Positions 3,036-10,899 are shown, numbered from the stretch's first letter. The stretch: DNA of 64,000 nucleotides from Escherichia coli (GCF_003334255.1 NZ_QOWU01000011.1), one strand, 5' to 3'. The notes: generated by a model not told the origin, from the sequence alone. Numbers and translations are program-made.

Positions 3036-4834
3036 TAGTAGACATCTCGCTGATAACGGCGCTCTACGCGCAGCTCACTTAAAAATTCATCCGCCGCTTC
3101 GGTGTCCATGCCACCAAATTCGGCAATCACTTCCAGAAGTGCCTGCTCAACGTCTTTCGCCATGCGATTAGCGTCACCGCAGACATAAATGTGGGCACCG
3201 TCATTGATCCAGCGCCACAGCTCCGCGCCCTGTTCGCGCAGTTTGTCTTGTACGTAAACTTTTTCTTTTTGGTCGCGCGACCAGGCGAGATCGATCCGCG
3301 TCAGCACACCCTCTTTGACGTAGCGCTGCCACTCCACCTGGTAGAGGAAATCTTCCGTAAAGTGCGGGTTGCCAAAGAACAGCCAGTTTTTTCCCGGCGC
3401 TTCATCGGCAGCACGTTGCTGCATAAAGGCGCGGAACGGCGCGATGCCGGTGCCTGGGCCAATCATAATCACCGGGGTTTCTGGATTGGCTGGCAGGCGG
3501 AAGTTATCGTTATGTTCGATAAATACGCGGACTTCGCCCTCTTCTTCCACGCGGTCAGCGAGGAAGCTGGAGGCACCACCGGCACGGGCGCGGCCTTCCA
3601 CGTCGTAACGCACCACACCAACGGTGACGTGTACTTCGTTCTCGACTTCCGCCTGCGAGGAGGCAATGGAATAGAGACGCGGCGTCAGCGGGCGCAGCAG
3701 ATTAATTAGCGCTTCGGCATCAAGCTGTGCCGGGGAGAAACGCACCATGTCAACAATCGGCGTCGTCGCGGCGTAATGCTGTAACTTCGCTTTATCGCCC
3801 ACCAGCGGCAGCAGTGTTTCACTGCGGGTAAGCGTGGCGTAATTCTCAACAATGTTGGCGGTGTTGACGGTCAGTTCGAAGTGCCACTGTAGCGCTTCGT
3901 TCAGAGGCAACGTTTTGCCCTCGACGGTGACAGGTTCATCGCCTTTCAGCCACAGCAGTTCGACAAGTTCTTTCACCAGTGCCGGATCGTTCTGATACCA
4001 GACGCCCAGCGCGTCACCCGGCTGGTAACGCAGGCCCGAGTCACCTAAGTCAATTTCGATATGGCGAACGTCTTTTTCAGAGTTACGCCCGGTAATTTTC
4101 TGGTTAACAGAGAGGCTAGCCACCAGCGGCGCGTCTTTGCTGTACGGGCTGGTGTGGATTTCATTTACCGCGCCAGTAGCGACGGATTGCGAAGGTGCCG
4201 CGACAGGCGCACGCGATTTAAGCGCATCAACCACGCGGGCGCGCCACTCGCTGGCAGCAGCCTGGTATTCAACATCGGCATCGACACGGTCGAGCAGGCG
4301 TTCACCACCCAGTTCCGCCAGCTTGCTGTCGAAATCTTTCCCGGACTGGCAGAAAAATTCATAAGAGCTATCGCCGAGGCTAAACACGGCAAACGCGGTG
4401 TTTTCCAGCTTTGGCGCTTTTTTGGAGAACAGGAACTTATGCAGCGCGACGGCTTCTTCCGGCGGTTCCCCTTCCCCTTGCGTTGACGTCACTACGATGA
4501 GCAGTTTTTCGCTGGCGATTTGTTTGAATTTATAGTCGCCCGCGTTCACCAGCTTAACGTTCAGTTTTGCTGCTAATAAATCATCACGTAATGCTTCAGC
4601 AACCCGGCGCGCATTGCCGGTTTGCGAGGCGGAGATAATAGTTATACCCGGCATTTCTGCGGCTGGCGCTGGCGTCGCTGCAAGCGCAGCAGGCTGCTGA
4701 TTGAGTACGCCCCAGAAATAGCCAGAAACCCAGGCAAGCTGGGTGGGAGTTAAATCGGTCGTGGCCGCCTGAAGGCGTGCCAGTTGCTCCGGGTTCAACG
4801 GAAGCAACGCGGAAGGTGGGACCTGTGTCGTCAT
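3035..4834 (-). CDS. cysJ: sulfite reductase flavoprotein alpha subunit, 599 aa
   Basis: Full-length [31 protein letters not shown]...; flavodoxin + FAD/NADPH domains. Confidence 0.96.
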
Positions 4835-7854: not shown

Positions 7855-8715
7855 TTATTGGCAATCTGCGTGAATGTTTGTCACCAGTGCCTCCAGCACC
7901 ACTTTCCAGTCATCAACCACGCCAACATCTGCCTGTGAAAATACCGCAGCGCTGGCGTCATGATTAATCGCCACCACAAACTTGCTATTGCGTACGCCCG
8001 CCATTAACGCTGCTGCGCCAGAAGCGCCAACAACAATACACACCTCAGGTGCCAGCAGATGTCCGGAAATACCAATCACTTTTTCAGCATCAACGCCACC
8101 GTTCATCACTCGCGCCCGACTGTAGCCCACTTCGGCTCCCAGCTTTTCTGCCAGCATAGCGATTTCCTGGTTATCTGCCTCTCCGCCCTGCCCCACCACC
8201 AGCACCCGTCTGGCCTCAGCTAATGGGTCGCGGGTAACATTTTTCAGATCCTCTGTGCTAACCAGCCAGTCCGGAAGCGCACCCGGGACAATGTTCAGTT
8301 GTTGCATTCCAGAGGGCAACGTGGCGTTTTTCGCTGCTCCCGCCTGACGCGCCAGGGAAAGGCATAGCGGGCGTTTTTCTGTTTGCAGCGTCGCCGTTAG
8401 CGCATTTCCCCAGTGGGATTTGCGCACGCTTACGGTTGGAATATCTAACGAAGTCACCTGGCAGATGCTTGCACCATGTAAACGCCAGGCCAGCCGGGTC
8501 GACAGTTCATCGCCAAACGTTCCCGGCGGAAAGAGAACAACGTCCGCAGGCGTTCGCTGCCACTGTTCCACCAACGCATCCAGCACCTGTTCCGCCACTA
8601 CAGGCTGAGGTTCAATCTGCCAGTGCGCCAGGGTACAACCGCTGAAATCCTGCGCCGCCAGCCAGCTTGCTATTGCGGCATTCTCCTGATTTATTGTCAC
8701 AATTGCGATATTCAT
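7855..8715 (-). CDS. ygcQ: electron-transfer flavoprotein alpha-subunit-like (FixB-like), 286 aa
   Basis: ORF 7855..8748; start MNIAIVTINQ...; ATGA overlap with ygcR stop. Confidence 0.9.
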   Translation of the reverse strand: MNIAIVTINQENAAIASWLAAQDFSGCTLAHWQIEPQPVVAEQVLDALVEQWQRTPADVVLFPPGTFGDELSTRLAWRLHGASICQVTSLDIPTVSVRKSHWGNALTATLQTEKRPLCLSLARQAGAAKNATLPSGMQQLNIVPGALPDWLVSTEDLKNVTRDPLAEARRVLVVGQGGEADNQEIAMLAEKLGAEVGYSRARVMNGGVDAEKVIGISGHLLAPEVCIVVGASGAAALMAGVRNSKFVVAINHDASAAVFSQADVGVVDDWKVVLEALVTNIHADCQ

Positions 8716-9491
8716 GGCTGCATCCTTTGGCGTAAATAGTCCTGCCATAGCTTTTGAGCTTTTTCTGCTACCGTTTGCCCATCAATCAGCGTCGCTCCGC
8801 GTCGTTGCTCTGCTCTTGCCAGTTGCAGACACTGCATCGCTGGCATTTCGGCAGCAACAGTTTTACGGATAATTTCTGCTTTCCCCGCAGCCATTCGCTG
8901 GCGCATTCCCGGTACTGGCAAGGCCACTTCACCGCACTGACGCACGGCAATCACCGCAGGCAAGCGAACCCGGCAACAACGCAACCCATGTTCAGTACGC
9001 TGTTCGAGGGTGATAAACAGCGCGTCGAGAGTGAAACGCTCCACCTGGGTGAAGCAGGGCCAGCCCAGCATTTCCGCCAGCAAAAATGGCGTTTGCCCAT
9101 TCTGCCCTTCGCTGCTTTGGCAGCCGGTAATTATCAGATCCAGCGGATTCTGATGCTGCCATTCGGCAATATGGCGAGCGACAAATTCCGGCGCAAAGCG
9201 CAGATCTGCCGCCGTCTCCAGCAATACAGCTTCCTCAAACCCAAGAGCCATGAGATAGCGCAGCCAGTGCAATGCCCGTTCATCCCCCATGCTCAACGCG
9301 GTTAAAGACATCGGCGTACCGTTTTTTCTCTGCGCCAACAGCAGCGCGGCAGCGGCCTGTTCATCAGCACCGAGTAAACTTCGCAGTAGCGAAATATCCG
9401 GTCCGCTTTTACCCTGAGCCGCCGCCTGCCACTCTTTTTCCGCCAGCATTCCGGCATCCGGTTCGGCTTTAAACGCTAACAGAATGTTCAT
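8712..9491 (-). CDS. ygcR: electron-transfer flavoprotein beta-subunit-like (FixA-like), 259 aa
   Basis: ORF 8712..9497 begins at GTG; ATG at 9491 (MNILLAFKAEPD...) preceded by GGAGGTG. Confidence 0.9.
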   Translation of the reverse strand: MNILLAFKAEPDAGMLAEKEWQAAAQGKSGPDISLLRSLLGADEQAAAALLLAQRKNGTPMSLTALSMGDERALHWLRYLMALGFEEAVLLETAADLRFAPEFVARHIAEWQHQNPLDLIITGCQSSEGQNGQTPFLLAEMLGWPCFTQVERFTLDALFITLEQRTEHGLRCCRVRLPAVIAVRQCGEVALPVPGMRQRMAAGKAEIIRKTVAAEMPAMQCLQLARAEQRRGATLIDGQTVAEKAQKLWQDYLRQRMQP

Positions 9492-10806
9492 TCGCACCTC
9501 CTACATTTCCCGCCGCCACCAGCGGGAGGGCTTTAGTTTCTGGTGCCCATAGCCAGGTCACAACAAAACCAACCAACAACACTGTCGCCAGGAGCAATAA
9601 GGTGACTTGCATTCCCCACTGCGCCAGCACCCACGGCAGCAGGCCAGTACTTACCGCCGCGCCAAGTCGACTCATGGCAGTGGCAAAACCGACGCCCAGC
9701 GAGCGAATGTCAGTAGGAAAACTTTCCGCAGGCAAAATGCCCACCAGATTACTGACTGCCGAAATGGTGGTGCTGAAGAGAACAAAAAGCAGCAGCGTTA
9801 ATGAACTGCCGGAAGGCAAACAGGCCATGACTACCAGCGTTGCCGCCAGCAGCAAAAAACTTCCCAGCAAAAATTTGCGATGTGCCAGCAGGTGCGTCAG
9901 AACTAATCCCAGCAGCGCGCCCACAATTAACAACGCATTAAGCATCAGGCTGGCAGTCAGCGCATCTTCCAGACCAATAGTCTGGGCGATAGTTGGCAGC
10001 CAGGTATAAATCACAAACCATGGGATTACGAGGCAGACAAAGAAGACGCTGTTAAACGCCGTGCGCCGCCAGTAACGCGAAGAGAACAAGGTTTTGATGT
10101 GTTTATGGGTCGCCGTTACCACTTCATCGCCCAGTAAAACATGGGGACCAAAATAGCGATGCACGATAGCGTGAGCTTCTGCAAAACGCCCCTGGCGCAG
10201 TAGCCAGCGTGGTGATTCTGGCGTTCCCCAGCGTAATAACGTAATCAACAACGCGGGCAGAGCTGCCGATGCCAGTAGCCAGCGCCAGGCCTCCGGGTTT
10301 TCGGAAATAAAGTGATGTCCGGCAATACTTGCCAGCACATAGCCTACGGTCCACACCACGCTGAATGCGCCCAGCAAAATACCGCGATGGCGGCGCGGGG
10401 AAAATTCAGCCAGCAAGGTGTGACCTACTGAATAATCGCCTCCCAGACCAATGCCAATCAAAATGCGCAGTCCAATAAGATGCTCTGGCGTGGTGGCAAA
10501 AAATTGTAAAAACGAAGCAAGCGTAATCAGCAAAAAGCTGAAGGTGAAGATTTTTTGCCGACCAATATGGTCGGAGATCCACCCAAGAACCAGGCTGCCA
10601 AGGAACAAACCAAGGAGCGCCGAGCCGCCGATCATTCCCGCCATAAACGGCGTCAGTTGCATGGCGGGCGTAAGCTGAATAATGGCGTAACCAATGACGC
10701 CGAGAACATAACCGTCGGTCAGGTGTGCGCCGAAAGTGAGCGCAGCAATGCGGCAGTGAAAACGGTTAAGCGGTAAATCATCCATTCGCACCGGTGAAGT
10801 GTTCAT
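9469..10806 (-). CDS. ygcS: MFS-family transporter, 445 aa
   Basis: ORF 9469..10878; start MNTSPVRMDDLPLNRFHCRIAALTFGAHL...; multiple TM segments; 3' end overlaps ygcR start by 23 nt. Confidence 0.9.
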   Translation of the reverse strand: MNTSPVRMDDLPLNRFHCRIAALTFGAHLTDGYVLGVIGYAIIQLTPAMQLTPFMAGMIGGSALLGLFLGSLVLGWISDHIGRQKIFTFSFLLITLASFLQFFATTPEHLIGLRILIGIGLGGDYSVGHTLLAEFSPRRHRGILLGAFSVVWTVGYVLASIAGHHFISENPEAWRWLLASAALPALLITLLRWGTPESPRWLLRQGRFAEAHAIVHRYFGPHVLLGDEVVTATHKHIKTLFSSRYWRRTAFNSVFFVCLVIPWFVIYTWLPTIAQTIGLEDALTASLMLNALLIVGALLGLVLTHLLAHRKFLLGSFLLLAATLVVMACLPSGSSLTLLLFVLFSTTISAVSNLVGILPAESFPTDIRSLGVGFATAMSRLGAAVSTGLLPWVLAQWGMQVTLLLLATVLLVGFVVTWLWAPETKALPLVAAGNVGGANEHSVSV

Positions 10807-10825
10807 CTTTACCCCTTCATTGTCC

Positions 10826-10858
10826 GGTAATAAGAACGGCTTCTCGCCTGAGAAGCCG
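10826..10858 (-). terminator. hairpin + U-rich tract in ygcU-ygcS intercistronic region (intrinsic terminator/attenuator candidate)
   Basis: Minus-strand RNA CGGCUUCUC-AGGC-GAGAAGCCG followed by UUCUUAUU, 25 nt upstream of ygcS ATG; second imperfect hairpin GGCAGCG...CGUUGCC immediately upstream. Confidence 0.5.
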
Positions 10859-10899
10859 AAAAGGCAACGCCCCGTCATCGCGGAACGCTGCCTGACACA

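Follow-up and report, generated by a model that had tools for sequence, protein, structure and literature searches.

The 93-nt spacer between ygcU and ygcS of Escherichia coli encodes tandem hairpins on the coding (minus) strand, and we consider it fairly probable that the second of them (HP2) is a leaky Rho-independent terminator inside an operon which, together with a further hairpin (HP3) that would occlude the ygcS ribosome-binding site, steps down expression of ygcS-ygcR-ygcQ. Both termination at HP2 and its partial nature are predicted here from sequence. All positions refer to the window, that is, the whole 64,000-nt stretch of DNA that was analysed, unless another genome is named. An initial annotation of this DNA had described tandem hairpins in the spacer; these are real and the sequence reads as it was given there.

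Results

The spacer occupies 10899..10807 on the minus strand, in agreement with the annotation of K-12 MG1655, and directly follows the TAA stop codon of ygcU (10902..10900, minus strand), which is evident from both sequence and annotation. The minus-strand genes ygcW (12424..13209) and ygcU (10900..12354) are followed by ygcS, ygcR and ygcQ; ygcP-ygcO-ygcN lie on the opposite strand beyond these genes, and yqcE-ygcE are divergent from ygcW. YgcW is a KduD-like short-chain dehydrogenase, YgcU a GlcD-like FAD oxidase and YgcS an MFS transporter, and YgcR/YgcQ are two electron-transfer flavoprotein subunits. YgcP is a full-length match to Pfam PF04309, the glycerol-3-phosphate responsive antiterminator family (E = 1.6e-62), and ygcP is retained in nearly all orthologous clusters. 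In the literature that names the ygc genes we found nothing on operon transcripts or YgcP function.

Of 5426 complete E. coli genomes, 5094 contain the ygcU-ygcS junction, once each, at 95–100% identity and always on the chromosome. The 126-nt stretch that contains it folds with -48.4 kcal/mol, compared to -34.2 ± 3.6 kcal/mol for 200 shuffled sequences (z = -3.9), none of which equalled it. The two tandem hairpins (HP1 and HP2) occur at a median of one place per genome and at two places at most among 5093 E. coli genomes, and are present as a single copy in the window; a REP/BIME or other dispersed repeat is ruled out for HP1 and HP2 on these grounds, and the MG1655 annotation carries no repeat feature at the spacer. 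Rfam covariance models searched against 9000..14500 of the window, with E values up to 10, gave no relevant match. Orthologous loci were collected by a YgcU search with one genome per species, which yielded 67 loci. One of these, from E. coli 2015C-4136CT1, lacks the entire spacer together with the end of ygcU and codons 1–24 of ygcS (at about 3070..3095 of locus L002), and its annotation gives ygcU as a pseudogene and ygcS in a shortened form. Two loci have labels that are likely due to contamination or mis-binning, namely a Planctomycetota MAG (L003) and Chryseobacterium sp. 18061 (L027), in which YgcU is 100% and 88% identical, respectively, to that of E. coli.

HP2 is a 9-bp hairpin with six G-C pairs, CGGCUUCUC-AGGC-GAGAAGCCG, at 10858..10837 (minus strand), and was recognised by folding, scanning and conservation; its energy is -14.9 kcal/mol (z = -4.5 against shuffled sequences). 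It is followed at 10836..10829 (minus strand; MG1655 2897893..2897900) by the U-rich tail UUCUUAUU, the last U of which also opens HP3. In E. coli six of the eight nucleotides of the tail are U and the tract is interrupted. The hairpin with its AGGC loop and U-rich tract (10858..10829) had been correctly described in the initial annotation, which also rightly put the tail shortly before the ygcS start, although the distance is 22 nt and not about 25 nt. In a consensus terminator scan HP2, but not HP1, was terminator-like.

The initial annotation had made its reading depend on whether the structure is present in orthologs, and HP2 with a U-rich tail after the ygcU stop codon is kept in 34 loci that represent 12 named enterobacterial genera. 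From Escherichia through Citrobacter, Klebsiella, Raoultella, Yokenella, Pluralibacter, Mixta and Cedecea to Buttiauxella, ygcS follows ygcU in all loci and a U-tailed hairpin lies just 5′ of ygcS. In the 34-sequence alignment the HP2 partners can pair in 91.9% of cells, compared to 39–58% when the 3′ partners are slid out of register. Changes on both sides of the helix are seen at eight of the nine pairs and the observed score was matched in none of 500 shuffles, with some of these both-side changes stemming from Cedecea and Buttiauxella rows that MAFFT had misregistered. Read directly, the misregistered rows contain hairpins of other sequence, for example GGUCGGCUC/GAGCCGACC and GCGGUCUC/GAGGCCGC; another ortholog stem at the site of HP2 is GGCUCCUC/GAGGAGCC. 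Hairpins at the HP2 position range from -8 to -20 kcal/mol among orthologs, and several orthologs have an A-rich stretch 5′ of the stem. Over the 34 orthologs the eight nucleotides after the stem contain on average 5.5 U, compared to 2.4 in the eight before it, and at least four U are present in the tail of 32 orthologs, the other two having only three of eight. These counts were taken in a fixed register because automatic scoring of the best hairpin and T-tail was unreliable, extended stems often having absorbed the U-tract. In most genera, where nothing is inserted, the hairpin begins 6–12 nt past the ygcU stop codon. Clusters in which ygcU comes last have another hairpin after its stop codon, and the regions upstream of stand-alone ygcS genes (Erwinia, Pantoea, Serratia) contained no HP2-like hairpin. 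Overall, the ortholog comparison indicates that HP2 belongs to the end of ygcU and not to ygcS and that it is selected as a structure; it combines the features by which intrinsic terminators are recognised in sequence, namely a G+C-rich stem with a short loop, a U tract and compensatory change. As a separate observation, five of six loci with a stand-alone ygcS (the exception being the Pantoea locus) share the motif GGAAUR-GGGUAUGAC-N5-CGCACU about 100 nt before the start.

A published E. coli term-seq table (Adams et al. 2021, PMC7815308) lists no 3′ ends for ygcU or ygcS, and the supplements of TERMITe contain no entry for either gene. The absence of spacer 3′ ends from the term-seq table says little, because the same table shows that transcripts in LB stop in the ygcW leader (PMC7815308), and little RNA would reach the spacer.

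The tail of HP2 ends 22 nt before the ygcS ATG, and a consensus scan of the minus strand from 12229 to 10800 revealed no promoter-like site. Since so little sequence follows the tail and no promoter-like site was found, ygcS-ygcR-ygcQ would need read-through of HP2. The possibility of a promoter within the terminal part of ygcU was considered and rejected, there being no consensus match and only ordinary synonymous variation: the last 30 ygcU codons show no synonymous-site constraint. Further upstream, 100–135 nt before the stop codon, five of ten comparable codons are invariant among ygcU codons 440–450 (about 10999..11034, minus strand), a cluster that is within chance after multiple testing. 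In Firmicutes ygcU directly adjoins ygcR-ygcQ, and YgcU and the flavoprotein are therefore expected to work together and to be co-expressed.

The position of the ygcS start codon bears directly on how the spacer is read. In the RefSeq/PGAP strain records that we examined (e.g. NZ_CP152468.1) ygcS starts at an ATG at 10878..10876 (minus strand), in the loop of HP1, which gives a 469-aa product and would turn the hairpins into the first 24 codons of YgcS. We give this coding interpretation next to no credence, even though the ATG is in frame and the frame open. In 34 enterobacterial orthologs tblastn homology to YgcS sets in with the first residue of the short form, at a conserved ATG preceded by the Shine-Dalgarno sequence GAAGGGG; the spacer varies in length from 52 to 253 nt across orthologs; an upstream start in the same frame is lacking altogether in 19 of the 29 orthologs from outside Escherichia; and the variation in the stems tracks base-pairing. 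The true start codon is thus the ATG at 10806..10804 (minus strand), which yields the 445-aa form that is also annotated in MG1655. Because homology begins at 10806 and many orthologs lack an upstream in-frame start, we regard the start at 10878, which is 72 nt too far upstream, as an artefact, and the ygcS start is corrected here relative to the records examined, which run the coding sequence through the hairpins.

HP3 (10829..10789, minus strand) is present both in the minimum free energy fold and in the RNAalifold consensus, and spans the corrected ygcS start. UACCGG (10829..10824) pairs with CCGGUG (10794..10789) and UGAAG (10819..10815) with CUUCA (10799..10795), so that the 3′ side of the hairpin consists of ygcS codons 3–6 (the stretch of the helix on the coding side is CUUCACCGGUG), half of the Shine-Dalgarno sequence (10818..10812) is sequestered and the loop contains the AUG. 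Its energy is modest at -11.9 kcal/mol (z = -2.3). In the 18 sequences of which HP3 is the RNAalifold consensus every pair is invariant, and as HP3 never varies there is no covariation for it. The coding side is constrained beyond its amino acids: ygcS codons 2, 4, 5 and 6, which are all four of the comparable codons there, are synonymously invariant in 13 genomes, against a background of 6.1% of 228 comparable codons (those whose amino acid is conserved and can be encoded in more than one way), and by our own calculation, in which independence is assumed, the chance of four invariant codons is about 1e-5. In the Pluralibacter clade the upstream ACCGGA is absent and the same Pro codon varies. 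The fold and this conservation suggest that HP3 would hide the ygcS ribosome-binding site and thereby lower translation. The ygcS Shine-Dalgarno sequence is also overlain by a three-codon mini-ORF, AUG-AAG-GGG-UAA (10820..10809, minus strand), whose stop codon is UAG in other genera and is lost in C. koseri, one MAG and Citrobacter MGH106, where the frame reaches a UGA that overlaps the ygcS AUG; the mini-ORF probably arises incidentally from HP3 and the Shine-Dalgarno sequence.

HP1, AGGCAGCGUUCCG-CGAUGA-CGGGGCGUUGCCU, lies upstream of HP2 at 10893..10862 (minus strand) and was identified by folding as a 13-bp helix with three G-U pairs and an energy of -22.1 kcal/mol (z = -5.3 against shuffled sequences). 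It corresponds to the imperfect GGCAGCG...CGUUGCC hairpin of the initial annotation, which exists but had been drawn too short. Only UUU(U) separates it from HP2. HP1 is confined to the seven Escherichia loci, where its helix measures 12–13 bp in all six distinct sequences; selection on HP1 is doubtful, since these variants include uncompensated mismatches, in E. albertii and in some E. coli. In other genera this place between the ygcU stop codon and HP2 is taken up by inserts of 50–195 nt that have an ERIC-like core, namely in Klebsiella spallanzanii (8456..8582 of locus L007), Raoultella terrigena, Enterobacter sp. 10-1 and Citrobacter koseri, the C. koseri copy being short. HP1 matches the right end of the Klebsiella insert over 21 nt (AGGCAGCGU...GAUGACG; p about 0.004 in a short alignment), and this insert has a second copy within the same locus; the match to C. 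koseri covers 9 nt, and two of the four comparisons between HP1 and the inserts are not significant. HP1 itself has no ERIC core. We hold, as a tentative reading and for HP1 only, that the hairpin is the decaying relic of an ERIC-like element that once inserted between the ygcU stop codon and HP2, and that it has no selected function of its own. Its absence outside Escherichia, the inserts at exactly its site, the match to the duplicated Klebsiella insert and the uncompensated mismatches are all in keeping with such an origin, whereas the shortness of the alignment, the non-significant comparisons and a helix length held across the six distinct Escherichia sequences speak against it. In Klebsiella spallanzanii and C. 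youngae a further ERIC-like copy lies downstream of the yqcE leader terminator, before the start of yqcE.

The cluster contains two further terminators, both in leaders. The ygcW leader attenuator (13301..13232, minus strand), which served here as the positive control for regulated attenuation, consists of a box (13301..13269), a 19-bp terminator (13281..13240) and a run of U (13239..13232), and the yqcE leader attenuator is a paralogous copy (13436..13502, plus strand) with its box at 13436..13467, terminator at 13455..13494 and U8 at 13495..13502. In both leaders the box, which reads CAGUUACCAGAGAUAAUGAGAAAGGUAACUU in front of ygcW and has the consensus R-UUACY-AGAGA-N2-3-UGAGAAAR-GUAAY, overlaps the 5′ arm of the terminator (17–19 bp, U8-9). 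From Escherichia as far as Serratia, Rahnella and Pantoea, both leaders are conserved at almost every base. The helix GUUACC/GGUAAC, which would compete with the terminator, covaries between the two leader copies (G-C to A-U and U-A to C-G); on its own this antiterminator helix is weak (-6.1 kcal/mol), as expected of an antiterminator that is stabilised by a protein. The leader terminator has an energy of -30.5 kcal/mol and a U8 tract, compared to -14.9 kcal/mol and six U out of eight for HP2. Term-seq places a 3′ end at MG1655 2900311 (window position 13247), 38 nt upstream of ygcW (PMC7815308, supplementary file 3), with a read count of 40640, an intrinsic score of 15.8 and no Rho dependence (PMC7815308). 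Between the divergent leaders lies a perfect CRP-type palindrome, TGTGAttacgaTCACA (13348..13333, minus strand), about 40 nt upstream of the -10-like hexamer TATGCT of ygcW; yqcE-ygcE are given as Crp-activated (PMC8085971). In Limnobaculum eriocheiris (L037, about 3057..3186) only about 130 nt remain between yqcE and ygcW; they contain one palindromic hairpin between A9 and U9, both boxes and the promoter region having been lost.

A covariance model of the leader box (R1), built from 80 leader boxes only and run with filters off, gave 48.1 and 44.3 bits for the two leaders (E about 1e-10) when the window was searched, and no hit in the spacer. The spacer, searched alone as 201 nt, scored -0.3 bits (E = 9.6). 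Over 60 loci R1 detected only the ygcW and yqcE leaders together with three Firmicute sites outside the training set, and all three of these Firmicute loci carry ygcP; none of the 60 loci had an R1 box in its spacer. The leader boxes are probably the RNA targets of the GlpP-family protein YgcP. A mini-motif that seemed common to spacer and ygcW leader, UUACC-GGAC-AAUGA-AGG-GGUAA compared to UUACC-AGAGAU-AAUGA-GAAA-GGUAA, was rejected: our own regular expression matched almost solely these two places, and the motif was dropped because the expression had been fitted to both sequences and the independent leader-only model gave the spacer its negative score. Overall, the spacer has none of the three characteristics of the leader attenuators, which are the box, a very strong terminator and a position in a 5′ UTR next to a promoter.

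Discussion

We propose that HP2 and its tail would form a Rho-independent terminator of moderate strength at the 3′ end of the ygcW-ygcU segment. Of the RNA initiated at the ygcW promoter, which is CRP-dependent and subject to leader attenuation, the larger part would stop after ygcU and a fraction would extend into the genes for the transporter and the flavoprotein; this amounts to a constitutive, fixed step-down within one operon; that HP2 would act in this leaky fashion follows from the lack of room in E. coli for a promoter belonging to ygcS-ygcR-ygcQ. On the read-through RNA, HP3 would further limit translation of the membrane transporter. HP1, as a second stable hairpin 6 nt past the ygcU stop codon, may aid termination or 3′-end stability. 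The plain terminator for ygcW-ygcU that the initial annotation had put forward is supported for HP2, given its conserved stem, its tail and its link to ygcU, but not as a full stop, with only 22 nt to the ygcS ATG and no promoter between.

How completely, and by what means, HP2 would separate the two halves of the cluster can be read in other ways. If HP2 were a complete terminator of a two-gene ygcW-ygcU operon, ygcS-ygcR-ygcQ would depend on a separate promoter located either in the spacer or within the 3′ part of ygcU. Such an arrangement is conceivable in Serratia, Limnobaculum, Budvicia and Rahnella, where spacers of 63–241 nt have a hairpin directly after ygcU and sequence to spare, and ygcS is a separate unit elsewhere in some species. 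In E. coli, however, we consider it highly improbable: the short stretch after the tail offers no promoter-like site, transcripts that start upstream of HP2 must still cross it, and the last ygcU codons vary freely at synonymous sites. It is also possible, albeit unlikely, that HP2 (with HP1 in Escherichia) is a barrier to 3′ exonucleases which stabilises ygcW-ygcU after endonucleolytic cleavage and does not terminate transcription. Differential expression would then arise through RNA decay at a stable, conserved intercistronic hairpin, and the U-tract is indeed interrupted in E. coli and low in U in two genera; in B. subtilis, GlpP is also reported to affect the stability of glpD mRNA (cited in PMC9604022). 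A barrier has no need of a U-rich tail, though, and the tail is conserved well above the composition of its flanks. The barrier and terminator roles are compatible, since a terminator hairpin also protects the 3′ end that it makes.

HP2 had also been suggested to be a second regulated attenuator. On this reading YgcP or its ligand would open HP2, and transcription of the transporter and flavoprotein genes would be confined to induced conditions. The cluster encodes a full-length and widely retained PF04309 protein, two of its leaders do use conditional terminators and ygcS-ygcR-ygcQ require read-through of HP2, yet we judge this very unlikely and do not uphold it, as the box that accompanies the leader terminators in all taxa, Firmicutes included, is missing from the spacer. 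Further, HP2 is far weaker than the leader terminators; because it begins so soon after the ygcU stop codon, an upstream antiterminator element has no room in most genera; and the UUACC..AAUGA..GGUAA similarity, being located downstream of HP2, would be unable to block its formation. Gating of the transporter, which had been part of the same suggestion, is thus not upheld as leader-type attenuation but is plausible at the level of translation through HP3, a hairpin not included in the initial annotation. A conditional gate in two layers, with HP2 and HP3 tuning the levels of transporter and flavoprotein apart from those of the dehydrogenases, appears distinctly unlikely to us. Termination at HP2 would then be set by how closely the ribosome that finishes ygcU, with the hairpin 6–12 nt past its stop codon, trails the polymerase, and the invariant UACCGG...CCGGUG helix of HP3 would be opened by a factor of the cluster, such as YgcP, or by a metabolite.

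On the reading that we prefer, a leaky terminator combined with occlusion of the ygcS ribosome-binding site, the five-gene ygcW-ygcU-ygcS-ygcR-ygcQ unit is predicted to be expressed in two tiers, which is relevant to finding the substrate of this orphan cluster. One more intrinsic terminator within an operon matters little in itself, and HP2 would be a previously undescribed instance of an ordinary kind. The analysis also sets a plain spacer hairpin apart from the two real regulatory leader elements of the cluster, and the leader boxes of ygcW and yqcE are a more interesting lead than the hairpin in the spacer.

HP2 resembles the canonical intrinsic terminators of E. coli in its 9-bp G+C-rich stem, tetraloop, U-rich 3′ tail and position near a stop codon, and differs from them in lying 22 nt before a gene of the same cluster, with no promoter between, and in having an interrupted U-tract. 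The closest regulatory parallel to the cluster as a whole is found in B. subtilis, where GlpP-dependent antitermination operates at the glpD, glpFK and glpTQ leaders (PMC9604022). The likeness lies in the GlpP-family gene of the cluster and in its two leaders, where a promoter is followed by a binding-site-like box and an inherent terminator within the 5′ UTR, whereas the spacer hairpin is intercistronic, weaker and without a box, as a plain terminator would be. HP3 is comparable to hairpins that occlude ribosome-binding sites by using the first codons of a gene, with half of the Shine-Dalgarno sequence in the helix, UACCGG set against codons 3–6 and synonymous sites frozen; it differs in showing no covariation and is known here from predicted fold and conservation.

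The genomes of enterobacteria contain ERIC/IRU intergenic repeats with the consensus core GTGAATCCCCAGGAGCTTACATAAGTAAGTGACTGGGGTGAGCG. Inserts that bear a core of this kind sit at the site of HP1 in Klebsiella, Raoultella and Enterobacter sp. 10-1, and HP1 shares the AGGCAGCGU...GAUGACG segment with the right end of the Klebsiella copy, whereas it is only 32 nt long, occurs as a single copy per E. coli genome and is without the ERIC core. Partial terminators inside E. coli operons include the attenuator in the rplL-rpoB intercistronic region and T1 between rpsU and dnaG, for both of which termination frequency and read-through have been measured, whereas those of HP2 are deduced from its sequence alone. 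HP2 shares with these two terminators a hairpin and U-tract between linked, co-directional genes, the dependence of the downstream genes on read-through and, as we propose, a fixed step-down in their expression.
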